A DNA stretch of 64,000 nucleotides from Mytilus trossulus. Lineage: Eukaryota. Positions 32,465 through 63,969 of the stretch are shown one piece after another (the stretch's first letter is position 1; every line of letters starts with the position of its first letter). The stretch is taken from positions 59,520,001 to 59,584,000 of the forward strand of contig NC_086382.1 of NCBI RefSeq assembly GCF_036588685.1. Direction: 5' to 3'. The notes beneath the pieces were generated by a model, which ran no database searches, was not told where the DNA came from, and worked only from the letters and a program-made list of their open reading frames with translations. Made by a program: the position numbers and the translations under genes.

Positions 32465-32470
32465 TTTATT
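32465..32470 (-). terminator. Candidate TOPBP1 polyadenylation signal AATAAA
   Basis: First AATAAA ~120 nt after the stop codon; conserved in copy A at 8081-8086. Confidence 0.4.
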
Positions 32471-32590
32471 TCCATTATAAAATGCTTCTTCTTTGATAGC
32501 ACTTAGATAAAGAATTCAATAAAAATTTAATAGTACAGATCATTCATTAAATACAGGTTTTTAATTTACAGAGAACAATGAAACTAAATG

Positions 32591-35500: not shown

Positions 35501-38500
35501 AGAGTGGACACAATTTGTTAAGAACAACGAACAGATGGACAGACAGACGGACTGACCTTTGACCTAGGATGCATACATTATGACACATTCTCTGGTGTTG
35601 GTTAATATATATGTTAATTTGAAAATGTTTGTCAGGTATAAAGGATGAAATAATAACAGCTGTCCTCTCAAAATATAGTGTGGATCAAATTTGTTAGTGA
35701 TGGCCAGACCAACAGACAAACAGATCTTTGACCTAGGAAGTTGTACATACATCATGACACACCCTCTGGTGTTGGTAAAAATGGATGTCAAGTATAATAT
35801 TTGAAATCATAACGGTTCTCAAGATATAGAGCGGAAACAATCTTCACCACAGGACACGGGGTTGTCAACTGAAACCAAAGTTTTTTTTACCTTGACCTTT
35901 GACCTAGGAAGTTGTACATACATCATGACATGCCCTCTGGTGGTGGTTAAAATGGATGTCAAGTATAAACTTTGAAATCATAACGGTTATCTAGATATGG
36001 AGCGGACACAAGGTTGTCAACTGAAACCAAAGTTTTTGACCTTGACCTTTGACCTAGGAAGTTGTACATACATCATGACACACCCTCTGGTGTTGGTTAA
36101 CAAACTTGTTAAGTATTAAGTATAAAATTATAACAGTTATCTAGATATGGAGCGGACACGATCTTCACCACAGGACACGGGGTTGTCAACTGAAACCAAA
36201 GTTTTTGACCTTGACCTTTGACCTAGGAAGTTGTACATACATCATGACACACCCTCTGGTGTTTGTTAAAATGGATGTCAAGTATAAACTTTGAAATCTA
36301 ACTGTTTTCAAGATATAGAGTGGACACGATCTTCACCACAAGACACAGGGTTGTCAACTGAAACCAAAGTTTTTATACCTTGACCTTTGACCTAGGAAGT
36401 TGTACATACATCATGACACGCCCTCTGGTGGTGGTTAATTAACATGTAAAGTATAAAGTACGAAATCATAATGGTTCTCTAGATATGGAGCGGACACAAA
36501 GTTAAAGTGTTACGGACGGACGGCAGACTGATCACTATAGGGCAACCCGCCTAAAGGTGGGGCCCTAATAATTTATAATGTAATTTCTACTAATATGTAA
36601 CTATAGTTGAGTACTTACACAGAAACAAACCCTGATATATCTGGTGGACAGTAATCTAGTGGGTTCGGTGGAGGATTGTCAGTTAGATGAGCTGCTATAA
36701 ATTCTGGCTTCAGACATAGTATATTGTTACCCAATAGAACCTGTATGTCAGACTGAAAATATAAAATAGATGACTTGCTATAAATTCTGGCTTCAGACAT
36801 AGTATATTGTTACCCAATAGAACCTGTATGTCAGACTGAAAATATAAAATAGATGAGCTGCTATAAAATCTGGCTTCAGACAAAGTATATTGTTACCCAA
36901 TAGAACCTGTATGTCAGACTGAAAATATAAAATAGATGAGCTGCTATAAATTCTGGCTTCAGACATAGTATATTGTTACCCAATAGAACCTGTATGTCAG
37001 ACTGAAAATATAAAATAGATGAGCTCCTATAAATTCTGGCTTCAGACAAAGTATATTGTTACCCAATAGAATCTGTATGTCAGACTGAAAATATAAAATA
37101 GATAAGCTGCTATAAATTCTGGCTTCAGACAAAGTATATTGTTACCCAATAGAACCTGTATGTCAGACTGAAAATATAAAGTAGATGAGCTGCTATAAAT
37201 TCTGGCTTCAGACAAAGTATATTGTTACCCAATAGAACCTGTATGTCAGACTGAAAATATAAAGTAGATGAGCTGCTATAAATTCTGGCTTCAGACATAG
37301 TATATTGTTACCCAATAGAACCTGTATGTCAGACTGAAAATATAAAATAGATGAGCTGCTATAAAATCTGGCTTCAGACAAAGTATATTGTTACCCAATA
37401 GAACCTGCATGTCAGACTGAAAATATAAAATAGATGAGCTGCTATAAATTCTGGCTTCAGACATGGTATATTGTTACCCAATAGAACCTGTATGTCAGAC
37501 TGAAAATATAAAATAGATGAGCTGCTATAAATTCTGGCTTCAGACATAGTATATTGTTACCCAATAGAACCTGTATGTCTGACTGAAAATATAAAATAGA
37601 TGACTTGCTATAAATTCTGGCTTCAGACATAGTATATTGTTACCCAATAGAACCTGTATGTCAGACTGAAAATATAAAATAGATGAGCTGCTATAAAATC
37701 TGGCTTCAGACAAAGTATATTGTTACCCAATAGAACCTGTATGTCAGACTGAAAATATAAAATAGATGAGCTGCTATAAATTCTGGCTTCAGACATAGTA
37801 TATTGTTACCCAATAGAACCTGTATGTCAGACTGAAAATATAAAATAGATGAGCTGCTATAAATTCTGGCTTCAGACAAAGTATATTGTTACCCAATAGA
37901 ACCTGTATGTCAGACTGAAAATATAAAGTAGATGAGCTGCTATAAATTCTGGCTTCAGACATAGTATATTGTTACCCAATAGAACCTGTATGTCAGACTG
38001 AAAATATAAAATAGATGAGCTGCTATAAATTCTGGCTTCAGACAAAGTATATTGTTACCCAATAGAACCTGTATGTCAGACTGAAAATATAAAATAGATG
38101 AGCTGCTATAAATTCTGGCTTCAGACAAAGTATATTGTTACCCAATAGAACCTGTATGTCAGACTGAAAATATAAAATAGATGAGCTGCTATAAATTCTG
38201 GCTTCAGACAAAGTATATTGTTACCCAATAGAACCTGTATGTCAGACTGAAAATATAAAATAGATGAGCTGCTATAAATTCTGGCTTCAGACAAAGTATA
38301 TTGTTACCCAATAGAACCTGTATGTCAGACTGAAAATATAAAATAGATGAGCTGCTATAAATTCTGGCTTCAGACAAAGTATATTGTTACCCAATAGAAC
38401 CTGTATGTCAGACTGAAAATATAAAATAGATGAGCTGCTATAAATTCTGGCTTCAGGCAAAGTATATTGTTACCCAATAGAACCTGTATGTCAGACTGAA

Positions 38501-41500
38501 AATATAAAATAGATGAGCTGCTATAAATTCTGGCTTCAGACAAAGTATATTGTTACCCAATAGAACCTGTATGTCAGACTGAAAATATAAAATAGATGAG
38601 CTGCTATAAATTCTGGCTTCAGACAAAGTATATTGTTACCCAAAAGAACCTGTATGTCAGACTAAAAAAACAAAATACAAATCATATGACTAACGTCTAT
38701 ACATCGATTTATAACCAAGATCAAGCATGATCATCAGTTCAGCACATAAATAACTTATATCAGATAATTATGGGTTCTTTGTTACTTTGAATGTCATGAC
38801 TTCATACATGAAGATCATAGTAATTTAGGTAATACTTGCCTAAAAGAAACACTATTTTAGTCACTGAAATCAGTGGATTCTAATGAAAATAAAATATATG
38901 GCCAGAAACGACAATGAATGACAAACTACACAAATATACTGTGGATTTTGTTTGATATTTCTTTTGTGCTTTCGCCAAAATGTGCTTACATCTACAGAAA
39001 ATGTATACTTTGTTCAACATTTAAATTTATAGTTTTACCATGTATTTAATAAAAATTTGGTACCCATTGAATAATGATGAATCCAAACTGCAATTCAAAA
39101 AATATAGCTTCAACTCCATGATATACTTACAGGTTGTAAAGGCTTTTTGCTGAGGTCAAGGAATGCATGTGAAGCAGATATATTTTCTTCATATGGGGGT
39201 CTACAAAAGTAACATAAAATTGTTTAATCGTTACAAATGAAACGCATACCATTTGTACGAATTCTGTGGATAAAAAATCCTATTACTTTAAATTCTAAAA
39301 AATTGTATTATTTGAAGAACACCATTGTTTAAAATAGAAAATGGGGAAAGACAAATACCAGTAGGAATATGGAAACTATTAAATCAACCATTCAAGGTTT
39401 TCCAGAGTCTTTATGGTGACTTGAATAAGACCGGTACCACTCAGATTACATTTCTACCTTGACAGGTAAGTTTGTATTTAACCTATAAAATACTTATTTA
39501 GCCTTGAGAATTGAAAGGTCAGTTTATCCCATTCATAGAAGTTTACCTATGAGGGTCAGAATGGGGTTTACAGAATAGAGAATACATGTAATAGCAACAA
39601 AAAAATAGAGAAAAGAGAAAATGAACAATAAAATAAAATATAGAGAATACTGCGGTACAAAAGTATAAATAATAAATGTGCAAAATAACTTGAAAAGGTA
39701 ACTTTAGTAACTGTAATGCAATACTGATAATATAATGATCAATGTACATAATTGATAAATAATCTTGTAAAAGAAACACTATATATATTTTGTATATAAA
39801 AACATTTTACAGAATGAGAGTTATTAGCTCACCAGGCCCAAAGGGCCAAGGGAGCTTTTCCCTTCACTTGGCGTCCGTCGTCGTCGTTAGCTTTTACAAA
39901 AATCTTCTCCTCTGAAACTACTGGGCCAAATTAAACCAAACTTGGCCACAATCATCATTGGGGTATCTAGTTTAAAAAATATGTGGCGTGACCCGGTCAA
40001 CCAACCAAGATGGCCGCCACGGCTAAAAATGGAACATAGGGGTAAAATGCAGTTTTTGGCTTATAACTCAAAAACCAAAGCATTTAGAGCAAATCTGACA
40101 AAGAGTATAATTGTTAATCAGGTCAAGATCTATCTGCCCTGAAATTTTCAGATGAATCGGACAACCCTTTGTTGGGTTGCTGCCCCTGAATTGGTAATTT
40201 TAAGGAAATTTTGCTGTTTTTGGTTATTATTTTGAACATTATTATAGATAGAGATAAACTGTAAACAGCAATAATGTTCAGCAAAGTAAGATTTACAAAT
40301 AAGTCAACATGACCGAAATCGTCAGTTGACCCTTTTAGGAGTTATTGCCCTTTATAGTCAATTTTTAACAATTTTTCGTAAATCTTAGTTATCTTTTACA
40401 AAAATCTTCTCCTCTGAAACTACTGGGACAAATTAATCCAAACTTGGCCACAATCATCTTTGGGGTATCTAGTTTTAAAAATGTGTGGCGTGACCCGTTC
40501 AACCAACCAAGATGGCCATGGGCTAAAAATAGAACATAGGGGTAAAATGCAGTTTTTGGCTTATAACTCAGAAACCAAAGCATTTAGAGCAAATCTGACA
40601 TGGGGTTAAATTGTTTAGCAGATCAATATCTATCTGCCCTACAATTTTCAGATGAATCTGACAACCCGTTGTTGGGTTGCTGCCCGTGAATAGGTAATTT
40701 TAAGGAAATTTTGCTGTTTTTGGTTATTATCTTGAATATTATAATAGATAAAGATAAACTGTAAACAGCAATAATGTTCAGCAAAGTAAGATTTACAATT
40801 AAGTCAACATGACCGAAATGGTAAATTGACCCCCTAAGGAGTTATTTTCCTTTATAGTCAATTTTTAACAATTTTCATAAAATTTGTAAATTTTTATTAA
40901 CATTTCCACTGATACTACTAGGCCAATTCATTATAGATAGAGATAATTGTACTTTAACAATATCACAATAACAATAAAGTGACCTTAATTTTGGACAAGG
41001 TAAATGGCATGAAGCCAAATTTATCAACTTCTATTGTATGAAAGGGAAACTGACCTTTCAATTCTCAAGGCTAAATAAGTATTTCATAGGCTAAATACAA
41101 ACTTACCTGTCAATGTAGAATTGTAATCTGAGTGATACCGGTCTTATTCAAGTCACCATAACACTATTTATTGATTCAGATTTGAAATACATTATCACAA
41201 TTATGATCAGATAAATCAAAATAGACTCTTTAGTTTGGATCTGTATTTTCTAATCATTGAAAAAGGTTTTTAACTTTTGTAATATGTTCTTATAATATAC
41301 ATGTGAGGCATGAGGAAACATATTCTTAATCACAAAACTTTGAAACACTTACTTATTTTGTAGTACAGTAGCACCTCCAGCCTCTAGCAATCTTTTAAAA
41401 TTGTCATCTTTAACCTTATCACAATTCAGTAGCACTGTCCAACCATCAAATGCACCTATACATTGGTTAGTTGACTGTAAAAAATAAAACAAAGCTCACT

Positions 41501-44498
41501 ATCATAATGCATATTAATTTATTTCTGTGGTAACTAATCTTGTAGATTGAGGAAAAATTGTATATCTTAGATTTAAAAAAAAACTTATCTCAACTCTGCT
41601 TCACAACAAATACACAGTGTATATTATAATAACATGTTGTCATTTATTTTTGTGGTTTCTAATCTTGTGGATTGAGGGACAATTGTATATATGGTGGTGT
41701 TGTTTTTTACCTTGGTAGATTGTTGAGATGAACAAAAGCTTTAACTCATCTCATATCTGCATCACAACACATACACAGTGCAAATTATGATAACATGTTG
41801 TCAAGTATAAACCAAACAGTATCAACAGAGTCAGTCTTCAGTGAAAGAATAATTAATTGCTGCTCTTCTAAGACTGCATATCTACCACAATATACACATA
41901 ACTATTTTGTAAAAGTTATTCACAAGTTATTAAGATAAAACCAAAATGTCACTATTTTATATTTCATACAATTTACATCTTTTCTGTGAAACATCTTCAA
42001 ACTTACTAAAATGTTCAAGTCATCACTCATCCCAATTAAAAAAAAACCAGAATGTAAAATAAATCTTACCAAGAACAATTTCATTATATTTTAAAGAATT
42101 CAATTGAATATAAAATACCACTCCCACCTGTAGCGTATTTTGGACTTTGATCCTCCACCTGTATGCAGCAGCTGCCAGTTTAGCTGTTTGTTGATTGAGC
42201 AAACTTTGTGTTCCATCACCTCCCCATTCATAAAAATCTTCCTACAAATAGTGTTATTACTGTACATATAGCACTTATAGAAACTGTTGTTATTATTTAA
42301 CTACAAAATATCGTTCATTTTACTCTCTCACATTTTACCAATCATCCAGTTAAACTTACATAAAGGATGAATAAAACAGTAATAAATAACTAATTACATG
42401 CAAAGATATAAAAAAAAAAAGGTTAATAAAAGTTATGTTTTTTATTTCAAGTCCTATATAAAGCATGACAATACAAAAGAAAACAACTTTACTTGAAAGT
42501 CACATATATAAACACAAGTTCAAGTTTGTACATCATACTTAATGTATAGAAATTGTAATAGACATAAAAATATTAGAAGGATTGTTTTTTTTTATTCTTT
42601 GAAGTAATTTAGGTGTACCAAACATTATTTTTCTTTATCAGTAGTTAAAGATATATTCTCCTTTGTAAGTCTTTTAGAGAAGCCATTATCTAAATTTCTA
42701 ATTATAACTATTTATGTAACATAAAATGACCTTATTGAGGCTGTTCATTAAACTGTCATTACCTGAACAAATTGTCTCTCCTGACGACAAGCTTCAAAGT
42801 ATGATTTGTGTAGAACCCATTTCCCTGATGCTACACTTGCTAAAAACTTCTCATTTCTTGTAGGTTTACCTGAAAGTCATTGAACTTGTGTAAAAATATG
42901 TACTGCCTCTAAAAAGTTATAAAATTAGTACATCAATGCTTTTTATTTTATAATTCACAACCTTCAGTAAATGCCAGATACAGACATTTGAAATTTACTG
43001 AGTCTATCCTAAACTGTTTGACATATTTCTTTTGTTTCTTGTTTGTTTACTTTCTGCTTACTTGTCTTTAAAACTACAACAATGATTATCTCCAGAATGT
43101 TTGATGTTTCAGATAGATTTAAGATCGTACAAAATCCTTGATGGTGATTTTTTTTTATTGTTAGCCTCAGTCATTTTGGAAGCAGGAGTTTCATGTGTCA
43201 ATTTTCTCAGCTTCTATCTTTTATAATAGATTTGTATAATGTTATTGGGACACACAGATAAGAGTAATCCTGTTTTATTACACTATCTACATGTAAACAC
43301 TGCACACAAACCTATGACTAGATGTGTACAGGAACAATCAAAGTGTAGAGATTCTAATATCTTCCCTCCAAGCTGTTCTACTAAAGCACCATAATTATCT
43401 TTTTCCTAGAATATAAATAATAAATGTAAGGTCTGTTATGGTTATATCAAGGTATGTAATGATATAAATAATAATTGATTCCTATATTTTTGTAGGCACC
43501 TATTTTCAGAGATTTTGAAAACTTGCTTGTTTGTCAATCTCTGCATACAATGTCTATAGAAAGTTTTTAATTCTTTGAGTGTTAGGAAAAGAAACATAGA
43601 CATTAATAGTTTTACTTCTTGTGGTCACATTACAAAAATGTTTGTGAACTTAATTTGTGATATGCCTCCATCAAGATAATTTCATGAAAATATATAAAAT
43701 CCACAAAACACAAAATATTGACAGGATTTATAAAGTAATGTCTTACAGCTGGTTCCATGCCAGACATAATGAACACAGGGGGTGGTTTCTGGACTGGTTC
43801 CTCTTCAGGTTCTGGAGAGGGAATTCTATTCTCTTCTTTTCTTGACTTGTGGAATGCTATAACAAACAACATTTTCAATGTCTCTAATTAGTCAACGCTA
43901 AATTTTATATGAAAGGTAAGAAATAACATTAAAACTAAGTATGTTAATAGTCAAATGTGAATTTTTACTGTGTTCTTCCTTTGGCTCAATATGCATTTGA
44001 TGATTTATGTATTCACTCATTATTTCAAGTTTAAAGTCTCTTCTGAATAGATTTTTAATAATCTTTCTTGTACACCAATAACACTTGCTTTGTCCAATAT
44101 TTGATTTCTAAGTTAAATTCTGTTTGTTCTTTTAATGCATGAAAAAGTGTGTTTCTTTTTAATGTTCTATGGTAATACTATTGCTTTTTTTTCTATATTA
44201 GATAAATTTTGATATTTTTTGTAACAATTTATTTATAAAGTTAACAGATATTCATTTCTTTTAACTTTTTATAATGGGTGTATGGGAAAGTGCCTTTATT
44301 AAGTCAGGAATATGACATTGTTATCTATTACTTTGATGGGTTGAGCTTTTGATTTTGCAATTTGCTTAGTGCTTTCTGTTTAAATTTTTCCATGATGTTT
44401 TATATTTTTAATATTGTACTTTTATATACATGTAAATATAAATACCTACCTAGAGATGGACCCTCCGGAGTTGGAACTCTTTCCTCTTTTGGTTTTTC
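32591..44498 (-). CDS. TOPBP1: TOPBP1 last nine exons (BRCT7/BRCT8 and basic NLS-like tail), functional copy B
   Basis: Open frame from [18 protein letters not shown] through [46 protein letters not shown] and ASHAF to [13 protein letters not shown]. Confidence 0.93.
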
Positions 44499-47400
44499 CT
44501 TTAATATTGTCAAATAAAAAAAGAAAATATAATCACACTGTACTCGTGTAATGCTAGCAATTTATCATATTATAACAAAATAAATGTTTCAGTTGTTACT
44601 CTGTACTGTTGAGATATGGATGATTTTTTTGTTTTTCTGTTTTCATGTTTTACTTTTTACATTTTATCTTTTAAATTGGATCTTACATCTTCCTTAATTA
44701 ATGCGTATAAATTCCCAAAAATCATCAGAATGACAAACAGGATGCATGTGTAATTATGCTAAGCATATCCGTCTAATTTTGTAAGTGTCTGTTATCGTAA
44801 AGTAACTACTATAAATTTGAAAAGCTGATACACTTTACAAAGCATCACTGTTGAGCTTCTGAACAAATATGAAGTCAATCTGTCGTGTAGATTTTGAGTA
44901 AAGTGGGTCAAAAATATTTGTTAAATAAACAGGTGGAGGTGATTGCAATTTAGCCAACTTTTAAAGTGGGAGTATAATATTTAATTCAGCCAAAATAAAG
45001 TTTAAAATTATTTGTACATTTTGTACATGAGACAAATTTTCCTTTTTGTTATCACATAGTTGTATGGTGTATGAGAAATTGTGTACTTCCTATCCTTGGG
45101 TCATGTATCAAAGTTATTGAAACATTTTGCTTGCTCCATATTTAAGGATAGCAACATACACAGCAACTCTGAATCACTCTGAAATGGAAAAATAAAATCC
45201 TATACTTACTTGAGGAACTTCAGCTTCAGGTTCGTGTAACCCTTCCTCATAATCTATGTCTTCTTCCTCCTCAGAGAACTCCCCGTCCAGGAACTCAGCT
45301 ACATCCTGGGTAGGGCTACACGCTCGTTCAAGTTTGTGAGCTAACTTTTCTTGTTCTAGTCTGTAAAGCATTTACCAGAGGCATTGATATAAACGGGAGG
45401 AAAGGGAGATTTTTTTACGTTATAATACATTAACTTGTAGTGGATTATTGTCTATTTCTTATTATGTATGTATAAAAAAAATGATTTTTTAAATTTGAAA
45501 TGCCTTCTTACTCCTTATTGCTATACCTTCAGAAAAGTCTAAATCTGTATTGCAGAAAAAAATATCATCAATTAAGATAATTCTAACTATATCTGAACAC
45601 TAAATTATCTTTGACAGATTTAAATATTATTAGAGAGTATATTCATCAAAATATATTCACTTCTGATTCGTAACAATAAAGTGTTGGTTTTTAAAAAAAA
45701 GTTTTATTATGCAAAACCTCAGAAACTAAGAAGTATGTAACTCCCCCACGAGAAGAACCAGTAAAGAAATACTATAAGAACAAAGTCTCCCATTTGTTGA
45801 TGGGGAATATAAAAAGTAAACATGGAAGCTTATTAGTTATAATTCTAAAAAATTTGTAAGGGTTCCGCGGAACCCAGTGTCTCGCCTACTTTTGCTGTAA
45901 ATCGCAGGTTCAACAAAAATGAGGCAAAAAATCAATAAAAATATTCCTCTTGATACTATCCTATGATTGTAAGAAGGTTCTGTCCAAGTTTGGTAAAAAT
46001 CTAGGACAGTTAATGAATCTAATAAATGTGTTGAAAACTTTAACTACAGACTGTATGTAATGTTAACTAGAAGAAAATCTAAGTCAATTTAAAAGTAAAA
46101 TACAGAAAAAATGGAGTTATACAAAATTTACTAACTTATGATCATAAATAAGCTTCTGTCCAAGTTTGGTACAAACCCAGGATAGTTTAAGAAAGTTATT
46201 CAAATTTTAAAAACTTTTACCACAGAGTGAATGTAATGTTTCCCTGCAGAAAAACTAAGTTCATTTAAAGGTAAAATACGGAATAAATGGATTTATTATT
46301 TTATAAATTTTGCCTCTGGATACTATCTTATGATCATAAACAAGTGTCTGTCCAAGTTTGGTACAAACCAAGGATAGTTTAAGAAAGTTATTCAAATTCT
46401 AAAAACTTTAACCACAGAGTGAATGTAATATTTCCCCACAGAAAAAAATAAGTCCATTTAAAAGTAAAATACGGAAAAAATGGAATTTTATTTTTACAAA
46501 GTTTACTTCTGGATACTATCTTATGATCATAAACAAGCTTCTGTTCAAGTTTGGTAGAAATCCAGTATAGTTTAAGAAAGTTATTAAAATTTCAAAAACT
46601 TTAACCACAGAGTGAATATTTGTGGACGCCGCCGCCGCCGACGGAATGTAGGATCGCTTAGTCTCGCTTTTTCGACTAAAGTCGAAGGCTCGACAAAAAG
46701 GTTTTAATCAGATGATATAAAATACATCTTACCTTCCAGTATGATCATCCCATGTGACCTGCACACTCTGTGAAGGCTCCGGTCCTGAGTGATTTTCTAA
46801 CGCTTTCCCTGTTAAATATATATACAAATTTTCATTACTGGATAATAATTTTAAGAAAGGATAATTTAAAATCCAACTGAAAATGTGATGCATTATAGTA
46901 GATTTTGCAAAAAACAAAACTTTAGTATTAAAAGACAGATGGGCAGAAAATATGTCTTCCTATGGAAATGAGGGAATTTAACTATAACAATAAAAATCTT
47001 ACAGCAGACTTAAAATCTTTTTCTTTTTTTATATATATATATAATTGATTCAAACCTGAGCTTGTTGGAGTCTTCTTTTCAACTTTATCGTCTACAATAA
47101 GATCAAATGATTTAAATTTTAAATCACATTTCAATATCAAACATCAGAATAAATTTTAACAGACTTTTCATTATGACACCTTTATATCAACTGAAATGTG
47201 TAACCTCATTGAACAAGTTGACATCATTTTGTAAAAATTCATAGATATGTCAAATGTTGATATTCATCTTTTTATTTCTGCATGTTTAATTTAAAGTGGT
47301 CTTGTAAGGAGCATGAATTGCTAATCAATACATTCAGGTAAGCTAGTTTCATCCAAATCAAGATGTCAAGGAATATTATGATAATAATATGAAAATTAAT

Positions 47401-50400
47401 ACAATGTACATAAAAAATAATTTGCAGCAGTCTAATTGATTGTCCCCAAGGCTTTGTGATATATTTGCACATTTTGTAGTCTTATTTTCATCATTTTCAC
47501 CTAATGTCACAATACATGTTAAAATTCAGAGAATAAAGATAATTATGACCTCTGTTAACATTCAAGCCTGTAGTTACTTTAACTTACCAGTTAAACTCCA
47601 TCTGTTTTGTCTAGAACTATTTTTATCAGCACTACCTGACAGATCACCGGACAAATTACCACTACCTGTCGAAATAAACAAACTCATCGAAATCAATTAT
47701 CTTCATTTACATATTAACATTTATCTGTCTTCAATCATTTTCCATTTCTTTGATTTTCAATATATGAGTTAGGCTGTTTATAGTATAGAAACATATTACA
47801 TAAGCAGAAACATAAGGTGCCTTGGAAGTCTGCATGTTTTCTAAATAAAATATTGTAAAATCTGATATTTCTGTATGCATAATTTGTTGCAAAATTGTTC
47901 AGTAACAGAAAAAAATGTGAGATTGTTATTACAATTTTAGGAAATGCTACATGCAAATATTTCTATAAAATCTGAAATGTGAGTTTTTATATATGACAAT
48001 TAGTATCATGTCAAAATTTTTGAAAATAATTAAAACCAAATATAGTATACAAGTAAAAAATTCATCATTTCCTGATGTTAAAAGATAACACAGTAATACT
48101 AAAAACTTACAATTTAATCTTTTACTCCTTCTCCTCATTGCTTTTTTAGTTCTGGAAGTAATAAACAACAATAAAAGGAAGAACTAAAGATAACAAAAAA
48201 TTCAATCGAATAAAAAGCATAATAACAGGAATTTCATTTGAGAACTATGAAAGTTCTATCAAGTTTTAACTTTTTCCTTTCATTACATGTGCACATATTA
48301 TTTAGATGCATTCTAAAGACTGTTGGGCACAGAGACACCCTTGTCTTGTGCTACTTAAAAGTGTCACCATAATAAAATGGAATATCAAAAAGGTATCTTA
48401 TCAGAAGCAAGTTAAATGCTAGTATTTTTAAAACATATTGGGTATAACTATAGTTCCTTTTGACTCGAAATATTTTAATTTCCACCTATTTACAAACAAA
48501 ATGATGAAATCTGGTCCTTTTAACTTATCACAAAAAAAAGATTTGATTCTCAAATCCAGTGTCCTAATACAGTAAATTTTTAATGTTCTGTACTATTTGG
48601 CCTGTAAATTTTGTTTTCCCAACATATTTTAGTATGACAAATAACATAGCCCTGCTGTGTCAGATATGTCAGATAATCTTCTTTTTGTTGGTAAGATACT
48701 GTAACAATGATTTCTGATGAACATAAGTTATTTTCCTATGTAATCAGGATTATAACACAAAACCAACTGGACCAGGAATTAAATTAGTTTTTTATTATTT
48801 TCAATTCTTACTTTGATGCTGCCATAATACTTTCCATCTCCTTTGATAGAACTTCCCTCATTTCCATGGACCCTGCTGCTGGCACAGCATCCTAATATCA
48901 ACATAAAAATAGTGAAAATTTAAGTTAAAAGTAGGTAATGAACATGATAAAAGAGGGTGACTGTCAATTTTATTCAACTTAAATTAAAACTATTCATACA
49001 TGTTTTTTTTTTTTCTTTTTATATCAAGATCTACAAATGAAGGCAATGATTTGAAAGAAAAAAGACCAAAAGGTCAAAATACTGAGACTACTATTATATG
49101 AAAATTGTTTGCTAGTTCTTTCTAATAATTTTCATCAAAATTTTTAATAAAAGTTATACTTGAGTAAAATGAACACATTGAACTTTTCTAGTAAAATATT
49201 TGCCTGGTTTACAAATGTGTAACTAACCTCTTTCCCTCGATCTTCATCAATGGAATTTATACTACTTTTCCTATTCCTTCTTCCACCCTTTGTTATTTCT
49301 TCCGGAACCTCCACTACATTCCCTAGCCTTGACCTTATTTCAGTATCAGTGTCTGTTTGTCCTTGACCTAACCTTGACCTTATTTCATTATCTGTGTCAC
49401 TTTCACTAACTGTTTCCTTGTCCGATTCCATTACTTTTTGTACTGGCTTTTTTAATGTTTTTTCTACTTCCTGGTCAAAGGTCAATATTTCTGGTTTCAG
49501 GTCACTTGCTGATTCTAACCGTGTTGCCCTGGTTGCTTTTCTGCTACTTCTAGCAGGTGTTCTTGCTGGGGTTCCAGTCTTTTTTCTTGACACAGACTAA
49601 AATAGAAATCTTTTAGTTATTGAAGGCTTTTAACATACCTTTAAATTAACAAAACATATTATTTATACTACTTATAAAAAAAAGCTTTTTCGTTTCCTGC
49701 TTCTTTATCAAAACTTTTTGCAGTAATTATACATCTAAAAAGACAAAATTATAATTAAATATGATGAAATATCAGTGATTATTTCATTCTTGCACATCTC
49801 TAGACACATAATGCTTTATTTGAATAACAATTTTAATATTTTTAGATGGCCTACACAAACTTGAAAAAAAATAATAACAGTTTTTAAACAACTATCAGAT
49901 TTCTCTATTTTTTTCAGAATAATTTTCAAATTTCAACTGACAGTAACTTCCTACGTTTCATCTAATATCATTTTATTTAAGATGATAGTCAAATAATAAA
50001 CTTACCAGTGTAAGATTTGGATTGTAGTTATGTGGAAACAATGACTCATCTACCCAGGCGTTCTGTTCTTTACACTGAAAATAAAAACGTAATAAGAATA
50101 TACTTACAATATGATCTTCTATGAACATCTAGATAGATATAATATCAATTATTTAAACTTCGAGCAGTAAAATTTACAGTTTTCTTTTAGATATTACAAG
50201 TTTGAATTATAAACTTGTATGTTATTTTCTTTACCGAGGATGCAGTAGAAATTCTCACAGTTGAGATGTATGCTTTATAATACATGTATTTTCCAAATCA
50301 TGAAGTATTTAATGATTTTTTTAACCGTATATTCCTTCATTATACTTAATTCAAAATTTTTGGTTTAAATTACATCCATCATTTTTCCTTACTATAATTT

Positions 50401-53400
50401 CAGTTTTCTTTGTAATAGTGCAAAAATTCTGCAGATGTTGAGATTACGTTTTTTTGGGGTTGTTCTAATTTAAAAAAAAAAGTCTATTCGTTCATTAACA
50501 TAAGTATCAGCTATCTATGAATAGCATCAATTTCTTATAAAATCAAGACTATAGGGATTTCTGTTCTTGCTAAATTGTGTGAACTCATTTGTTCATCATA
50601 CCAACTTTCAAGTAAACGGCAAGATGAAGAACAGCCATGTAAGTACTGTCCCTTTCATATTCTTGTTATTCTTAGGGATTTTCTTATATGCAAACACCTT
50701 ATATCCATTTTTACACAACAGTTTCTTCAATAAAATATTTTCAATGCAGATATATACTATTTTTTTAGGCTCAGATACCTTAAAATATAAAGTATGTAGA
50801 CTCACAGAACTTTATTAATACACTTACCATTAACAGCCAATGAGATGAAACAATAATTTTCTTTTGGTCCCTTGCAACTCTGAACTCTTTAGTGGTATCA
50901 TTTGCTCTAGTGCTCTGAAAGCAAATATAAAAATACATTATTTTTGATGCTGAGCCCTTACATGGCATTAAAGACAGAGAATTTTCAATTTACTCTTCTA
51001 TATTAAGGGATTTCTTTATGTGATGTCTAACTTTGCCAATGAATCACAAAAGTATATCCAACTTTTAATAAACTACTTCAGCAATGTTGGCTTCCGGTTG
51101 TTTTTGGGAAGTCTTCTTTGTGTTATCACCACATTTATACATTTTTAACCTTTAAAGCTTAAGACTACTAGTTTACCTTTTCACAGTCAATATAAGGGCT
51201 AGATGATAGTTACCCTCCAAAGATATCTATTATCTCTTTGGAAATCTGCACTTTGGCAACAGCCATCATAATAGCAAACCTTTAATCAATTAAGCATTTT
51301 CTATTTCTAGTGTTGCTCTCAATATCTTAGTAATTTATATTTCATTCAGGATATACTCAGGTGAGGTTTTGGAAATTTGTGTCAGAACTTTTCGGACTGC
51401 TTGGTTTTTACCAACAATACAGGGAAAAACATTTTGCCCCATAACACCCACATTTCTTTTCATAAAAGACTTCAAAAGCTCATAAAAGGTCATTTTCTAA
51501 AATTTAAGCAGACTCTTGATTTCTTTTCTTTCAATCTGAGACCAAAATAAATGCTTTGCAAATGTAGGGTAAAAGTCTGAGTCAACCTTAAGACAAAATA
51601 TCTAAACCACTGACAGTCTTCCTTACCTGGAATATAAAATGTGTACATGATTCATCATAGGCCCATCTATAATCTCCTCCCAGTAATGATACCATATTGT
51701 TGTACTCTGCCTGGTGGGAACTCAGCTTCTTACTCACTGCTATCACTACTCCCTTCAATGGTCCGGCCTCTTGTTGCTGTAGAAAAAACAAGAATGTGTC
51801 CACAGTACACGGATGCCCCACTTGCACTATCCTTTTCTATGTTTAGTGGACCGTGAAATTGGAATAAATTCTCTAATTTGGCATTAAAATTAGAATGATC
51901 TTATCAAAGGGAACATGTAAACTAAGTTTCAAGTTGATTGGACTTCAACTTCATCAAAAACTACCTTGACCAAAAACTTTAACCTGAAGTGTAACAGACG
52001 GATTGAATGAATGGGTGAAAGGACTCACAGACCAGAAAACATAATGCCCCTCTACTATCATAGGTGGGGTAAAAAGATAAGAATATGAATTGAAGTTTTT
52101 AAATACGAGATCTCAATTCAGTCAACTTTGACATTAAATCTGATCAATTGAATACATATATCCTTCTTTTAAAAAAAACTAATTGTATACATTAAAAATT
52201 TGTAAGGGTTCCGCGGAACCCAGTGTCTCGCCTACTTTTGCTGTAAATTGTGGGCTCAACAACAATGAGGAAAAAAATCAATAAAAATTCTCTTGATACC
52301 ATCTTATGATTGTAAGAAGCTTATGTCTAAGTTTGGTAAAAATCTAGGAAAGTTAATAAATCTAATGAATGTTTTGAAAACTTTAACTGCAAACTGTATG
52401 TAATGTTAACTTAAAGAAAATCTAAGTCCATTTAAAAATAAAATACAGAAAAAATGGAGTTATCTTTTTACAAAATTTACTTCTGGATACTATTTTATGA
52501 TCATAAATAAGCTTCTGTCCAAGTTTGGTACACACCCAGGATAGTTTAAGAAAGTTATTAAAATTTTTAAAACTTTAACCACAGATTGAATGTAATGTTT
52601 CCCCGCAGAAAAACTAAGTCTATTTAAAAGTAAAATACAGAAAAAATGGAGTTATCTTTTTACAAAATTTACTTCTGGATACTATTTTATGATCATAAAT
52701 AAGCTTCTGTCCAAATTTGGTACACACCCAGGATAGTTTAAGAAAGTTATTAAAATTTTTAAAACTTTAACCACAGATTGAATGTAATGTTTCCCTGCAG
52801 AAAAACTAAGTCCATTTAAAAGTAAAATACGGAAAAAACAGATTTATATTTTTACAAAATTTACTTCTGGATACTATCTTATGATCATAAACAAGCTTCT
52901 GTCCAAGTTTGGTACAAACCCAGGATAGTTAAAGAAAGTTATAAAAATTCTAAAAACTTTAACCTTAGAGTGAATGTTATGTTTCCCCGCAGAAAAAACT
53001 AAGTCTATTTATAAGTAAAATACGGAAAAAATGGAATTTTATTTTTACAAAATTTACTTCTGGATACTATCTTATGATCATGAACAAGCTTCTATCCAAG
53101 TTTGGAAGAAATCCAGTATAGTTTAAGAAAGTTATTAAAATTTCAAAAACTTTAACCACAGAGTGAATATTTGTTGACGCCGCCGCCGACGGAATGTAGG
53201 ATCGCTTAGTCTCGCTTTTTCGACTAAAGTCGAAGGCTCGACAAAAACCATAACAAATAAATGAATGCTGTCCAAATGAGCTTGATTTAAACTGATAAAT
53301 TAATTATTAACAATTCTGTCAGTTTCATTAAATTACACTGCTTATAATCAAATACTGCCTCAATAAATACACTTTTAACACAATGTTATGAATATTAGGT

Positions 53401-56400: not shown

Positions 56401-59400
56401 TAAACACATATATATTTTATATAAATTGATGATGACTGATATGGGATGATTAACATACTCTTGGAAATATGATATGCATATAAGGACAAGAAAATGTTTA
56501 TGTGATGTTAATTTGAACCTTCTTTTGAAAAAGACTGTTTTTTAAAAGAAAAATTTAATTTATTTAAAACGAACTTAAGTGTTATCTAGATATTTTGTAT
56601 TCACACAGAAAGGTCTTGTCTGCTTTAAAGATTATAATAGAATTTTGTGTTGGTAAAATTTTGTTATTTGTAAAGTACATCTTAAAACCACACAATTGCA
56701 TTTGATAGAGCTGCTTGAATAGGAAAATATATATCTTAATCTCCAATACCCAACTTTGGTAGCAGTTGAGATGAAAGTTGTTATTTGTATCCAATAAATA
56801 TAAACATTGATGTCTGCCTATCCTAGTTAGTAAAGAATAATCTTTTGACAGATGGGTTGTTAGTTTAAGGTGGTACCAAACAGCATGATTAAAATGCACC
56901 ATGAACTTGAACCATACTTTATCTGGAAAAACGTTTTTGAATATCAAGAAGTTTGACAAACACTAATTTTAATCAACGAGAAGCTTTGAGAAGTCATTAA
57001 CAATAAAACATGATTACATAATTTAGCTGGTTTTAACAGAGTTATCTCCCTGTAGTGAAATGTATCATCTTAAACCAAAAATCTTTTTCCTCTATAATAA
57101 TGAACTTACTGAGCACCTATACACTGGGCAATATGCATCAGACATTCTTTTTCTGTTCCAAACCAACCACTGTAACAAAATATAAATATCTATTTGTTGC
57201 AGAAGTATATATTTCTGAATTTGTATGTCAAAATATATATGATTGTCATACATATTTTTTTCACCGCAGTAAAATCGCATTTAAGTCTAAAATATCAAAA
57301 TCGCAATATCAAATGTACGCAATAATTTCTGAATTTACAGTATTTACACCTTTGGAAAGTTTTGTTGATACTTATCTAAATTCTGTATCCTTGTTGACAA
57401 TAGACAGGAATATAGATATGTGATACTAGTCATAGTACACACAAACTGATGACACAAAGTTGACAATGTACAGTGTGTGTAATAGAATAATACTCAACTA
57501 CTTACTTTTAATTGATTTATAAAATACCTATGATTTTTATCTTACAGCATCATAAAAAGTGTTTTTTAGAATTCAGTTAGAAGCTTTAAGTTATTTTTCA
57601 TACTTCTTGTTAAATAATAATTGTCTTTATATGTCCTGTATGAACTAATGATCAATCAGTTTCATTAACACGTTCCAATCCCTACTGACTCACCTGAATG
57701 ATAAAATACAGTCCACCAGTGGATTGTCTTCAATATTGATATCCACGGGAGAAAATAGTGGATTACTACTCACTGGTAAAAGTGTGTCAGATTCTGCACA
57801 CATTTGCTGTAATCAATAAATATATTTCAAATATATGTTTTCAGTTCAAAGCTTTAGAAATATATATTTTTTTAAATCAAAATTTCTCTGTTTAGAATCT
57901 CTTAACTGCAGATCTGTTTACCAAATTTGAAAATACAAAAACCATAAATAATAGCCAAATAGCATTAATTTCAATGACACAGAAATATTTTAATAAACAA
58001 GCCATTTTTTTATGGTTTAAAACTAAAATTGGTTTGATAGATTCTCATTAATTTGACTTTTTAAACAGAGACTATAATCAGATTCAGATAATCTTCAATT
58101 TCAGTTTAAAGCTTGCTCAGCTTAATTGAGTATCAAGAATTTTCTTTCTTCTTTGTATTTTTTAAAATTAATATTTATTTCTAAATGTGATCTTATTTCA
58201 AAATTCAGTTTTTAATATCACAAGCATAATAACCTTTCTCAGTCATGTTTGTTATCTCCCCTTAATTTGAAAAGAATGGAGGAAAAAAAACTTTTCTAAA
58301 ACTAATATGTATAAATATTTCCAGCAATAATAGCTTCTACTGTATATTCACAGAATCTTTTAATAAGAAGTTTGTTCATTTAAAAACCCTTTACACACTT
58401 TCTTTAGTAATGGAAAATATTAATATCTTTGGCATCTGAACAGTACTCAGAAATTTCACTTCTTTTGTCCTTCAACAACTGTTTTATGACTGGATTAAAT
58501 CCTGTAATTTTTCAAAAAGTATGTTATAACATTGAATACAAACCAGCCAAGTACTGGTTGCTATTTCTCCAACTGTTTTGTCCACAGGAAATCCATCTAC
58601 AGGAACAACACCATAATCTGGTACCAGTCTAGTGTTACCCTGATAAACTTTTCCTGAAAATTTAAAGATCATTGTAGCAGCAATTTTAAATTGTTAAATA
58701 GTAACCACAAGAAATTATCTTTATCATTAACAAAATGTACAATTTCGGTAAAACAACAAAAAATCAGGACCAAAACAAAAATAAAGGAAAATTTTTACCA
58801 CTCATACATTTGCTGCAGAAATAAGAAAGTGTTTAAGAATTCTAAATTAAAACAAACCTCCTTCCTCATTTACAAATTCTGTTAATGGTGTATGCTGCTC
58901 TTCCTCAAATCCAAAAAACATAAATGATTTTCCTGTAAACACCTTTTTCTGTATCTGACTGTCACCTAAAATTACGTATCAAAAAATATTATTTCTTGGG
59001 TAAATTATATTTAGCTATAAATATTAGAATTTTATACAAAATTTTGGTAAATCATTGAAAAAATATATTTCTTTTGAACTTTCATACACTTATATGCCAT
59101 TTTTTGAAAAACTCTGAAAGTTTGGAGACCTATATCAATCTGTGTTTTACATGTTTTCATGCATGCTCAGTCGATGTGAAAACTGTTTCAACACTTGCCC
59201 AACTGCACAGGCATCTTCTAGTTAATATAAAACTGTGCATACATAATTTAGAAAAAAGATTATCAGAACAATCATTTTGTTAAGATATAAATTTTGCAGC
59301 CTTTTGTGTAATAAGGAGTCAACTAGGATACAATTTACTGCAAAAAATTCTACTTCACAATGACTGACTTTTAAAAGTAATATAACACAACTAACAAATT

Positions 59401-62400
59401 ATACAAACTTACCATCAGGATTTTGAGTCATTTCATCTGCCTCTGTTTCTACAGGTCTTTGTTCTATAGCTGTAGGTTTATCTTCATCTTTCATGGTTTT
59501 ATCCTGTGTATTATCTAAAATGTATGATTTAAAAATTAATCAGTATTTAACATTTTAAAAATCATCACAAAAGCATGATATACAATGGGAAGCAATGCTT
59601 ACAGCCTTTATTCTAATCTAACCTGAAAATTCTTGAGTATTCATAAATATCATACTGATTCGACATCTGCTAAATTCAAATAAATAAGGGTCAAAATTAT
59701 CAACATCAGTTTATTTATTATGATGTCAGTGATATGTCTGGGTCAAAGTTATAAAGGCTGGGTCAAACTATTTGACGTCACAAAGGCATGATATGTAATT
59801 TTGTCAAGCGCTGAGTAGATTGATACAGACAATAGGACAACATATAATTATTTATACCGTAACATCTTTTGGCTGTACAATAGGACAACATATAATTATT
59901 TATACCGTACCATCTTTTGGCTGTACAATAGGACAGCATATAATTATTTATACCTTACCATCTTTTGGCTGTACAATAGGACAACATATAATTATTTATA
60001 CCGTACCATCTTTTGGCTGTACAATAGGACAACATATAATTATTTATACCGTACCATCTTTTGGCTGTACAATAGGACAACATATAATTATTTATACCGT
60101 ACCATCTTTTGGCTGTACAATAGGACAACATATAATTATTTATACCGTACCATCTTTTGGCTGTACAATAGGACAACATATAATTATTTATACCGTACCT
60201 TCTTTTGGCGGTACAATAGGACAACATATAATTATTTATACCGTACCATCTTTTGGCGGTACAATAGGACAACATATAATTATTTATACCGTACCATCTT
60301 TTGGCTGTACAATAGGACAACATATAATTATTTATACTGTACCTTCTTTTGGCGGTACAATAGGACAACATATAATTATTTATACCGTACCATCTTTTGG
60401 CGGTACAATAGGACAACATATAATTATTTATACCGTACCATCTTTTGGCTGTACAATAGGACAACATATAATTATTTATACCGTACCATCTTTTGGCTGT
60501 ACAATAGGACAACATATAATTATCTACACCGTACCATCTTTTGGCTGTACAATAGGACAACATATAATTATCTACACCGTACCTTCTTTTGGCGGTACAA
60601 TAGGACAACATATAATTATTTATACCGTACCATCTTTTGGCGGTACAATAGGACAACATATAATTATTTATACCGTACCATCTTTTGGCTGTACAATAGG
60701 ACAACATATAATTATTTATACCGTAACATCTTTTGGCTGTACAATAGGACAACATATAATTATTTATACCGTACCATCTTTTGGCTGTACAATAGGACAA
60801 CATATAATTATTTATTCCGTACCTTCTTTTGGCGGTACAATAGGACAACATATAATTATTTATACCGTACCTTCTTTTGGCGGTACAATAGGACAACATA
60901 TAATTATTTATACCGTACCATCTTTTGGCTGTACAATAGGACAACATATAATTATTTATACCGTACCATCTTTTGGCTGTACAATAGGATAACATATAAT
61001 TATTTATACCGTACCTTCTTTTGGCGGTACAATAGGACAACATATAATTATTTATACCTTACCATCTTTTGGCTGTACAATAGGACAACATATAATTATT
61101 TATACCATACCATCTTTTGGCTGTACAATAGGACAACATATAATTATTTATACCGTACCTTCTTTTGGCGGTACAATAGGACAACATATAATTATTTATA
61201 CCTTACCATCTTTTGGCTGTACAATAGGACAACATATAATTATTTATACCGTACCATCTTTTGGCTGTACAATAGGACAACATATAATTATTTATACCGT
61301 ACCATCTTTTGGCTGTACAATAGGATAACATATAATTATTTATACCGTACCTTCTTTTGGCGGTACAATAGGACAACATATAATTATTTATACCTTACCA
61401 TCTTTTGGCTGTACAATAGGACAACATATAATTATTTATACCTTACCATCTTTTGGCTGTACAATAGGACAACATATAATTATTTATACCTTACCATCTT
61501 TTGGCTGTACAATAGGACAACATATAATTATTTATACCTTACCATCTTTTGGCTGTACAATAGGACAACATATAATTATTTATACCGTACCTTCTTTTGG
61601 CGGTACAATAGGACAACATATAATTATTTATACCTTACCATCTTTTGGCTGTACAATAGGACAACATATAATTATTTATACCGTACCATCTTTTGGCGGT
61701 ACAATAGGATAACATATAATTATTTATACCGTACCATCTTTTGGCTGTACAATAGGACAACATATAATTATTTATACCGTACCATCTTTTGGCTGTACAA
61801 TAGGACAACATATAATTATTTATACCGTACCTTCTTTTGGCTGTACAATAGGACAACATATAATTATTTATACCGTAACATCTTTTGGCTGTACAATAGG
61901 ACAACATATAATTATTTATTCCGTACCTTCTTTTGGCGGTACAATAGGACAACATATAATTATTTATACCGTACCTTCTTTTGGCGGTACAATAGGACAA
62001 CATATAATTATTTATACCGTACCTTCTTTTGGCGGTACAATAGGACAACATATAATTATTTATACCTTACCATCTTTTGGCTGTACAATAGGACAACATA
62101 TAATTATTTATACCGTACCATCTTTTGGCTGTACAATAGGACAACATATAATTATTTATACCGTACCATCTTTTGGCGGTACAATAGGACAACATATAAT
62201 TATTTATACCTTACCATCTTTTGGCTGTACAATAGGACAGCATATAATTATCTACACTGTACCATCTTTTGGCTGTACAATAGGACAACATATAATTATC
62301 TACACTGTACCATCTTTTGGCTGTACAATAGGACAACATATAATTATCTACACTGTACCATCTTTTGGCTGTACAATAGGACAGCATATAATTATCTACA

Positions 62401-63969
62401 CTGTACCTTCTTTTGGTTGTATAAGATACTGTGACATGATATCCATTTCTTCTTCTTCCTTGTGATCATCCTCATCAGGTTTTATGTTTTCTGGTTCTAA
62501 AGTTTTGTTTTGGATACTCTCTTTTCTTTCAAGTTTCTTCTGTTTGCTGTTTAAAAAAATGTAATAAAAATGATAAAAAATACTTATGCATAATAGCAGA
62601 CTCAAAAACTTAATCTTTTCATAGGAGGTAAAAAAGCTTATTGTGTTTAATATTACATATCTACAAACAAATACCATCACCAGTTTCAGTGTTAACAAAA
62701 TTTTTGCAACTCTGTAAAAAAAATATCTTACGACTAAAATTGATAGTTATACTGAAATGTGAATGACTTAATAGTATTTTTACTTTAAGTTTTTTGGGGA
62801 AAAAGAGCCCCTGATTCTAATATTAACTGTGTAAGTTCAACAGCATCATCTTAGAAGATGTGGCACTGCTTTATGCATGATTTAGTCAAATATGTATAGT
62901 CTCAATCTAAGATGTAAAACTTCTAGATTTCATTTAAAAAGTTTATGACTTCTACTATATATATATATAAAGGTTCACATCACATGCAAAGGCTGTTTGT
63001 GATGAAACCTTCTGCCAAAAAGTAGACAGATACCTGAGCATTCTGTAGAAAAGTTTACGTTATTAAAGTTAATAATCTTCATATATTTGGAAACTAAGAA
63101 CACAATTTTGATGACTAAGAAGTAACTTTAATCCTTACACTGTTAACTTTGGAGATTCTGATTCAGGTTGAGGTATATCTAGACATGAGAATGGTGCTTC
63201 ATCCACTGTTCTACCATTACGGTAACATTCTGCTAGCCAGGCTGGGGAAACAACCTGTGGTCTATAAATATACCAAGTAAATTATATCAATAATTTTAAA
63301 CTTGAACTCAGTTTCGCAAATATTTTTTATTGAAATTGAGTGATCTATGTCTGATATTTTTTCTTTCTAGTAATAAATCATTCCTAAGCCTCATTTTTGA
63401 AGTTGAAAGTAACTGTAAATGCAAGAATCAGTGTTGAACCTGATGAATCCTAAATAATGTTATTAGACACTCACTTTTACTCATGAAAATTTGTGTTAAT
63501 GTTACAAATAAATATAAGATGATAGATATTTTTTTGATATAGCGGAGTATATTTTTTGTGCAAATAGTTTGTATAACAAGGCAGTCTTAGAATTGATATA
63601 ACTTCTTGTTTTAGTTTTACCTATACAAAGAATTCTTCAAATATCGATGAGCAATGGAGAAAAGAACATTACTACCACTTTATATTAACTTTGTTGCATA
63701 ATTGTCGTATTGGCAATCATACCACATCTCCTTATTTTCATACCAGTATTTCATTACAGATAAAAAATTGAACTGGTTAACTGGACAATGTCTTATCGAA
63801 CAAACTAAAATCAGAAGTGTATTGTCCTAGAAACAAACAAATACAGATTTTATATTCATGTATTTTTTTAGACATTTACCTGACAGTGTTTGAAGTTAGT
63901 AATTCGATATCTCTGTCAATTCTTACTCCCAGTATGACGTGAGTGACAGCTTCATTTAACTGGTTAAGT
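32591..63969 (-). CDS. TOPBP1: DNA topoisomerase II-binding protein 1, multi-exon; 5' part lies beyond the window
   Basis: 32 GT-AG exons join in frame: 63880-63969, 63139-63261, 62407-62546, 59413-59514, 58858-58965, 58544-58653, 57694-57806, 57110-57169, 56219-56347, 55288-55807, 54806-54931, 54095-54163, 53723-53839, 51627-51776, 50828-50914, 50006-50074, 49228-49596, 48812-48891, 48111-48151, 47588-47665, 47056-47091, 46733-46808, 45210-45360, 44450-44498, 43747-43856, 43312-43405, 42763-42869, 42128-42241, 41353-41474, 39131-39200, 36619-36752, 32591-32684 (TAG). Recognisable TOPBP1 peptides: [86 protein letters not shown]. Confidence 0.96.
33283..34553. mobile_element. Tc1/mariner-pogo-type non-autonomous element
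   Basis: TA|CAGTCGATTCCACTTAATTGCATA...TATGCAAATAACTGGAATGTACTG|TA. The empty site GGTAA-TA-GTTGG is at 8835-8846 in copy A. Confidence 0.88.
35119..36568. mobile_element. Helentron/HINE-like element with ~6 internal ~165 bp tandem units
   Basis: Repeated GACCTTTGACCTAGGAAGTTGTACATACATCATGACAC core, a GGAC microsatellite and a terminal GC hairpin. Absent at the equivalent site in copy A (~9638). Confidence 0.7.
36686..38663 (-). repeat. 83 bp minisatellite, 24 copies; unit = 16 nt splice acceptor + first 67 nt of a TOPBP1 exon
   Basis: GTCAGACT recurs every 83 bp (36751 to 38660 = 23 x 83). The minus-strand unit is TATTTTATATTTTCAG|TCTGACATACAGG...GCAGCTCATC. Confidence 0.97.
39405..41165. 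mobile_element. Long-TIR element (~120 bp TIRs) carrying a nested repeat
   Basis: 39411-39530 is the reverse complement of 41044-41161. Absent from copy A. Confidence 0.75.
39822..40950. mobile_element. Nested Helentron/Helitron-like element with two ~500 bp tandem units
   Basis: Begins TTAGCTCACC..GGCCCAAAGGGCC (hairpin), then a CGT microsatellite. Units start at 39891 and 40393. Confidence 0.65.
45210..46808 (-). CDS. TOPBP1: TOPBP1 ATR-activating domain exons
   Basis: 46733-46808 gives [16 protein letters not shown], and 45210-45360 continues LEQEKLA. The SQ site and the critical Trp of the AAD (human EPSQNEQIIWDD) are kept. Confidence 0.92.
45850..46698. mobile_element. Helentron/HINE-like element, 4 internal ~190 bp units
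   Basis: Starts TTTGTAAGGGTTCCGCGGAACCC (palindrome) and ends with (GCC)n and a TTCGACTAAAGTCGAA hairpin. Sister copy at 52195-53246. Confidence 0.75.
50006..51776 (-). CDS. TOPBP1: TOPBP1 exons encoding BRCT6
   Basis: [33 protein letters not shown] / [18 protein letters not shown] / [19 protein letters not shown]. Confidence 0.93.
51787..52075. mobile_element. Short HINE-like repeat (other copies ~9350-9630 and ~34850-35110)
   Basis: AACAAGAATGTGTCC...GTTTCAAGTTGATTGGACTTCAAC...ATAATGCCC..TGGGG terminal hairpin. Confidence 0.65.
52195..53246. mobile_element. Helentron/HINE-like element, 5 internal ~192 bp units
   Basis: Same termini as 45850-46698. Core repeats at ~52306, 52497, 52689, 52881 and 53074. 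Confidence 0.75.
55288..58965 (-). CDS. TOPBP1: TOPBP1 exons encoding BRCT4/BRCT5
   Basis: Six exons give [101 protein letters not shown] and [10 protein letters not shown]. Confidence 0.92.
56011..56060 (-). ncRNA. Degenerate minimal type I hammerhead ribozyme motif in a Penelope/retrozyme-like repeat
   Basis: Minus strand reads GCGTCA-CTGATGA-GTCTTATGTAGAC-GACAC-GGGA-GTC-TGG. Related copies are at 14974-15020 (+), 19971-20017 (-) and 28863-28916 (-). Confidence 0.6.
59829..62421 (-). repeat. 48 bp minisatellite, 54 copies; unit = last ~15 nt of a TOPBP1 exon + splice donor + intron start
   Basis: AATAGGA recurs every 48 bp (59831 to 62375 = 53 x 48). The minus-strand unit CAGCCAAAAGATG|GTACGGTATAAATAATTATATGTTGTCCTATTGTA matches the true junction CAACCAAAAGAAG|GTACAG at 62407/62406. 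Confidence 0.97.
63139..63969 (-). CDS. TOPBP1: TOPBP1 exons encoding the C-terminal half of BRCT3
   Basis: 63880-63969 gives [29 protein letters not shown]. 63139-63261 gives [17 protein letters not shown]. Both match the vertebrate FNQLNEDVTHVIVG...RPHVVGAKWLLEC pattern. Confidence 0.9.

Follow-up and report, generated by a model that had tools for sequence, protein, structure and literature searches.

Two minisatellites spanning an acceptor and a donor of one TopBP1 gene in the mussel Mytilus trossulus

How can a gene accommodate two long tandem arrays, each of which repeats one of its own splice sites, and what places such arrays at exon edges? The question is raised by a stretch of 64,000 nucleotides of Mytilus trossulus DNA, referred to below as the window, whose numbering is used throughout.

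The TopBP1 gene and its two arrays

The arrays lie in a TopBP1 gene that occupies positions 32591 to 63969 of the minus strand, its 5′ part being beyond the window. Translation of an array-edge exon matched a sole protein cluster, represented by the Mytilus trossulus TopBP1-like protein P0004. This protein was placed by tblastn at 63971 to 32594 on the minus strand, and an exact GT-AG chain of 32 coding exons reproduced its residues 408-1685 letter for letter. Pfam models BRCT and TopBP1_BRCT0 were found in the gene, and the C-terminal part of a close relative of P0004 aligns with solved human TopBP1 chains. A 45-bp tandem duplication at 49322-49398 (minus strand) is in frame and lies entirely within exon 17.

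A preliminary description had reported two long homogeneous arrays in this gene, one on an acceptor and one on a donor. Tandem Repeats Finder together with the exon chain confirmed this: acceptor 36752 and donor 62407 each lie inside a terminal unit. The first array (36684-38677, minus strand; period 83, 24.0 copies, 97% matches) is built of a unit which, on the transcript strand, consists of 14 intron-type bases ending in AG followed by the first 69 bases of exon 31. That exon (36619-36752, minus strand, 134 bases) encodes the end of the last BRCT domain, and exon 30 (39131-39200, minus strand) precedes it. The unit of the second array (59829-62421, minus strand; period 48, 54.0 copies, 96% matches) comprises the final 15 bases of exon 3 of the window (62407-62546, minus strand, 140 bases) and the first 33 bases of the following intron; exon 4 of the window (59413-59514, minus strand) lies downstream. 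When the arrays are collapsed to one unit the two introns measure 469 and 348 bases, close to the gene median of 593.

The AG is kept in all 24 units of the 83-bp array and the GT in 51 of the 54 units of the 48-bp array, every one of which also contains an in-frame stop. The statement that the reading frame is left intact holds if the exon-proximal site is used, and not otherwise: 23 of the 24 acceptors yield a stop, only the innermost (36752) avoiding it, and so do 53 of the 54 donor positions, the exception being the first (62407).

The outermost 83-bp unit (38593-38700, minus strand) has native intron upstream of its acceptor, with the exon starting at 38661, and this is the ancestral acceptor. 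Compared with it, the 23 inner junctions have three of their 14 bases changed, one change turning TAG into CAG; on a matrix derived from the other acceptors of the gene they reach 8.8-10.7, the ancestral acceptor 8.2. The in-frame acceptor is thus one of the derived junctions, 1,909 bases downstream of the ancestral one, and its branch point would have to come from exon-derived sequence. The units differ from each other by 2.6% on average, the outer unit having four private letters; variants are interspersed, and a weak 10-unit echo is the sole higher-order structure.

Donor 62407, the site in the first 48-bp unit, is followed by a series of pseudo-donors; it was placed by protein match and by alignment with other Mytilus proteins. 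On a position matrix it scores 1.4, the last of 31, the 30 other donors of the gene scoring at least 4.0, and 47 of the 53 decoy donor positions (4.3-9.4) outscore it. This rank makes leak to the decoys plausible. The energy of pairing with U1, bulges allowed, conflicts with the matrix over the rank of the real donor: at -8.7 no donor of the array surpasses the first, and unit 44 equals it. Units 2-4 are weak relative to the first donor by both measures. Judging by the protein match and the in-frame stops, the first donor is probably the one used. Here the mean pairwise difference between units is 4.5%; the first four share variants rare elsewhere, variants are again interspersed, and a single repeated 4-unit block is the sole higher-order structure. 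The array stretch had no match in 14 other fetched Mytilus proteins at E up to 1. The end of exon 3 (62407-62421, minus strand) reads ..QPKED here and ..QPMEE, QPREE or QPMGE in six other Mytilus proteins; since the units carry the K codon, the array is younger than that change or has converted the exon end. A plus-strand open reading frame of 871 codons through the array (P0003) was taken to be a by-product of the 48-base period and had no matches among 8000 candidates.

An array-free state and the origin of the units

Self-comparison revealed a segmental duplicate of 29408-44533 at 3099-14063 (minus strand; about 80-94% identity in pieces) that contains exons 24-32 in a second copy and lacks the array. 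The empty state is represented by its copy of exon 31 (9690-9823), and the intron upstream of this copy aligns with the flank beyond the outermost 83-bp unit. The exon-31 sequence of the main gene is that of this array-free duplicate, and a single acceptor suffices to produce it. Of 245 codons in exons 26-32, 17 differ synonymously and 4 non-synonymously between the two copies, and the splice sites of the duplicate are intact. Its exon-25 copy has 117 instead of 110 bases, which shifts the frame relative to the upstream part, and an in-frame Met precedes the BRCT7/8 region. The duplicate could encode a BRCT7/8-only protein or could be a diverged haplotype placed in tandem. Its 3′ flank holds a 574-codon remnant of a LINE-type reverse transcriptase (4755-6479, minus strand; zf-RVT and a weak RVT_1) that is missing from the main-copy alignment.

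Four sequencing runs (X1, X18, X19 and X21) were compared over 38545-39880, an interval holding one full 83-bp unit and one junction. The DNA contigs of both X19 and X18 align with the flank and with the unit, stopping at 38593, where the unit ends. In X19 the depth over the junction bin is 0, and none of its 13 differences falls within 38662-38680; X18 has a depth of 22.1 over that bin, of ambiguous source. X19, the DNA of another mussel, appears to lack the 83-bp array and to carry the outer acceptor, with the proviso that contigs show presence better than absence and give no copy number; X18 remains ambiguous. The alignment of the duplicate's upstream intron with the outer flank and the outer acceptor in X19 together identify the outermost acceptor as ancestral. 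Run shares of 0.18-0.23 were dropped as a sign of the array because its exon parts alone give 0.236, and the share of 0.41 in X1 was set aside since a 169-bp satellite (0.119) could supply part of it.

The 83-bp unit has its breakpoints 14-16 bases inside the intron and 69 bases inside the exon, the 48-bp unit 15 (exon) and 33 (intron) bases from the donor, with 1-2 bases of microhomology at the unit joins. A splicing- or RNA-coupled origin, proposed in the preliminary description, finds no support here, as the breakpoints are away from splice sites and the units, at 31-33% GC, are neither consistently G-skewed (13G/14C and 9G/6C) nor unusual in their folding (z from -1.27 to +1.71). Seeding by hairpins or R-loops likewise gains no support from the fold and skew data. 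Spliced mRNA is excluded as a template because the units contain intron sequence.

It proved misleading to argue that boundaries take up little of the gene. Once the arrays are collapsed, its 26,956 bases contain 63 splice sites, and a random seed placed in the collapsed gene, wholly exonic placements being left out, straddles a site with a chance of 0.187 for 83 bp and 0.119 for 48 bp. The probability of at least two straddling arrays is 0.022 in a post hoc count restricted to these two, no other array of the gene being of high copy number; it becomes 0.116 with three arrays (an approximately 500-bp dimer added) and 0.458 with the six non-exonic arrays of the gene span (169-, 192- and 193-bp arrays added). 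None of the four others straddles a splice site, and a second copy within 1.5 kb was found at 2 of the 80 splice sites examined (63 in the main gene, 17 in the partial duplicate). The window was picked from a very large scan, so the value of 0.022 is not persuasive, and the enrichment argument from this gene, computed within the window, is weak.

These figures bear directly on the possibility that exon edges seed duplications above chance, through co-transcriptional splicing, R-loops, nucleosome or GC boundaries, or pre-mRNA-templated repair. The position of both high-copy arrays on junctions speaks for it, as does the recurrence of comparable repeats in amphioxus, the generating mechanism of which is called unclear in PMC3087553. 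A real junction enrichment across the genome, if true, would matter the more for that reason. However, with a copy at so few of the sites, four arrays that do not straddle, breakpoints off both splice sites and exon-exon joins, intron sequence in the units, and neither consistent G skew nor stable fold, we consider such a bias improbable, if not negligible.

The reading that we prefer, with a probability of about 0.7, is that both arrays are copies of the gene's own junctions, of the type called 'mirage' in amphioxus, which arose by chance short duplication followed by slippage or unequal exchange and persist through use of the exon-nearest copy. Each unit is local gene sequence across a splice site, and an empty counterpart of the acceptor array is present in the duplicate and apparently in X19. 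A wholly exonic seed would either disrupt the reading frame, since 83 is not divisible by 3, or alter the protein; a junction-spanning seed would leave one complete exon with usable sites and could survive like an intronic one. Exon definition and upstream-first donor choice would then favour the innermost acceptor and the first donor, and leak to other copies would lead to premature stops and, as predicted, removal by nonsense-mediated decay. Repeated unequal exchange would homogenise the units and spare the edges. Turnover by unequal exchange or slippage is established behaviour of minisatellites and fits the interspersed variants and distinct edge units.

This explanation is supported by units that are exact local copies with breakpoints off the splice sites, by inner acceptors that outscore the ancestral one and by a first donor that is top in U1 pairing. 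The low unit difference, distinct edge units and interspersed variants are as in the turnover of mirages in PMC3087553. Against it stand the straddling of both long homogeneous arrays (0.022), the matrix score of the real donor below most decoys, a gene model of a second species with an upstream acceptor (P0012, below), and the three changes in the 14-base junction, which exceed a plain copy of the ancestral acceptor. Of the earlier suggestions for such arrays, that they are tolerated is the one that fits best.

Splice-site use and sharing with Mytilus galloprovincialis

In the raw RNA of X21 (a related mussel; about 6% of the run) exon 30, ending at 39131, is joined to 38661 in 23 reads and to 38578 in 5. 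These joins confirm the exon boundary at the unit start. X21 is without sign of the array and thus says nothing on which copy is used. X1 consists of contigs, taken by guess to be RNA. Its summed contig depth, which is not a copy number, is 185-260 over the 83-bp unit, against 4.9 over flanking intron and about 23 over exon 30. The pattern suggests a carrier of the array, although X1 could hold an empty allele. The single spliced contig of X1 sits on an inner unit, as seen from an inner-type letter, and none sits on the outer acceptor; an intron-contiguous contig bears the private letter of the outer unit. The X1 contigs lend weak support to use of an inner acceptor. The full-length model P0004 and the spliced contig agree on splicing, and model P0012 reads through; carriers are represented by contigs or models only. 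No leak to decoy sites was seen at read level in X1, X18, X19 and X21 over 38545-39880, X21, the sole raw RNA, being without sign of the array. No RNA run was among the recorded sequencing matches to 36000-40000, and the junction of either array had no matches in metagenome scans.

P0012 is a protein of Mytilus galloprovincialis, one of 15 listed members of the P0004 cluster, with an accession adjacent to that of the normal protein P0009 and a contig of equal length. It ends in a read-through-type peptide, 39 of 41 residues of which match the window's read-through of one junction. A search with the read-through peptide found the P0004 cluster only and gave no matches among cluster representatives. 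The VDI accessions of the M. galloprovincialis proteins presumably belong to a published genome study of this species. Gene models in PMC7653742 are described as PASA transcript alignments combined with predictions and refined for alternative exons. P0012 uses an upstream acceptor in one annotation; as a gene model it may be an artefact of aligning a repeated unit.

The residues across the P0012 join fit the derived junction and not the ancestral acceptor, so that the founding duplication is likely to be the same event, common to M. trossulus and M. galloprovincialis. In P0009, residues of non-trossulus type occur both upstream and where exon 31 ends, evidence against a trossulus allele having been transferred recently.

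This sharing is relevant to the suggestion that the arrays act as dosage modifiers. In that case copy number or unit variants would tune the share of TopBP1 transcripts that use decoy sites, to be degraded or to end prematurely behind the last BRCT helix, and the arrays would be maintained by selection. A derived junction between galloprovincialis-type residues has lasted across a species boundary, P0012 would lose a tail that aligns with human BRCT7/8 structures, and leakage to the pseudo-sites lying nearest is known for the human arrays of CBS and 6-16 (PMC1557585). Yet selection is not needed for sharing among hybridising mussels, the array appears to be absent in X19, the runs examined show no leak, and P0012 itself may be an artefact; dosage modification is accordingly a poor candidate. 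About as doubtful as seeding bias alone is a wider proposal that joins the two ideas. Seeding at exon edges in mussels and other broadcast-spawning invertebrates would be far above chance, and TopBP1 would carry an old, cross-species, copy-number-variable acceptor allele, in which a strengthened neo-acceptor replaces the ancestral one and upstream copies give a truncated or degraded isoform, a heritable dosage dial of a checkpoint gene.

The arrangement could also be read as a case of Rogers-type or stepwise removal: splicing would still go to the ancestral outer acceptor, and a new intron, running from the AG|GT of unit 1 to the matching AG of the last unit, would take out the array and give the same protein. 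The ancestral acceptor and its native intron context are intact, every 83-bp unit has an internal AG|GT at exon base 12, and the inner-type letter of X1, at exon base 18, is compatible with this route. Nevertheless the internal donor scores 0.0 against a real-donor minimum of 4.0, and a 12-base micro-exon would be required, which makes such removal very improbable. Inflation or invention of the arrays by the assembler is barely credible: copy numbers are those of the assembly and the 48-bp array has no match in the outside sources searched, but the arrays mix 12 and 17 distinguishable unit types, interspersed along their length, the junction recurs in a gene model of another species and X1 has the raised unit depth given above.

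Known junction repeats and neighbouring elements

Minisatellites over exon-intron boundaries, on the 5′ or the 3′ side, were named 'mirages' in amphioxus, where splicing is said to be undisturbed (PMC3087553). They were described in Adh3 and the globins BflGb6 and BflGb9, to which troponin C and PGBD5 were added by PMC3902484. Both TopBP1 arrays likewise have a boundary-spanning unit (for the acceptor its position is also given by reads), keep AG or GT in many units, and show concerted evolution with the edge units apart. They differ from the amphioxus repeats in their bivalve host, in having 24 and 54 copies instead of the 3-6 of BflGb6, in the presence of acceptor and donor types in one gene and in a founding junction found in two species.

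Donor-spanning VNTRs are known from human F7 intron 7 (37 bp), CBS intron 13 (31 bp), 6-16, lamin B2 (100 bp) and PDGF (81 bp) (PMC1557585). As in TopBP1, the first unit spans the exon-intron junction and the donor is repeated down the intron; the F7 unit even contains the same number of intron bases, 33, as the 48-bp unit. In F7 the most upstream donor alone is used, even against stronger pseudo-sites (PMC1557585). TopBP1 has 54 copies compared with 5-25, and its decoys vary in sequence, many of them outscoring the real donor on the matrix. On the acceptor side, CBS 844ins68 (PMC2630376) is also a duplicated intron-exon junction of which the distal copy is used, the upstream exon copy being spliced out to give normal mRNA; it has one extra copy, TopBP1 has 23. 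Boundary repeats in human segmental duplications, with 27 curated intron modifications (PMC2812944), similarly differ between paralogues, but their frequent outcome is a new intron or an isoform that retains the repeat, whereas the exon number of TopBP1 is unchanged. The available portion of PMC10078293 provides a catalogue of splicing-associated repeats and contains no test of junction enrichment.

The general class that had been suggested does recur, but it is not unnamed, being the mirage of amphioxus (PMC3087553) and the junction minisatellite of the human F7/CBS type (PMC1557585). No mollusc mirage was found in literature searches judged by title or abstract. This kind of repeat is already known, and the TopBP1 case extends a little-studied type to bivalves; the new details are the array-free duplicate and X19, the ancestral acceptor in outermost position and the junction common to two species. 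The locus offers a natural test of splice-site choice: a single essential gene holds 23 decoy acceptors as well as 50 decoy donors whose GT is intact, and an array-free duplicate nearby can serve as control. It also indicates that a working acceptor can shift 1.9 kb from the ancestral site with the protein unchanged, and that such arrays yield truncated gene models.

Several other elements were found in the window. An intronless open reading frame of 1,762 codons (23183-28471, plus strand) lies between the TopBP1 copies and encodes DEAH helicase, RRM, KH and IBR/RBR domains, a DEAH11/12-like fusion; its exact stop-to-stop translation was missing from the protein collection searched. Satellite-like arrays of 192/193 bp occupy two introns of TopBP1 (45848-46699 and 52194-53247) and have about 790 bases in common at 88%. 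Partial matches to 51786-52049 occur at 9351-9612 and 34849-35070, and the arrays likely belong to a dispersed element. A 150-169-bp array (35462-36497), some 120 bases past the donor of exon 31, is absent from the duplicate and may be element-borne. Inverted repeats of 130 bp (93%) at 39411-41161 surround the approximately 500-bp dimer and have very high contig depth in DNA runs; this is likely a non-autonomous transposon, absent from the duplicate. Degenerate 19-21-bp repeats with strong G skew (GC skew 0.54-0.67) are present at 17-1709. The regions 22019-22770 and 19239-19627 hold a pair of 226-bp inverted repeats (93%), directly upstream of the helicase reading frame, and clusters of 11-bp repeats in inverted orientation, as is usual where an element ends.
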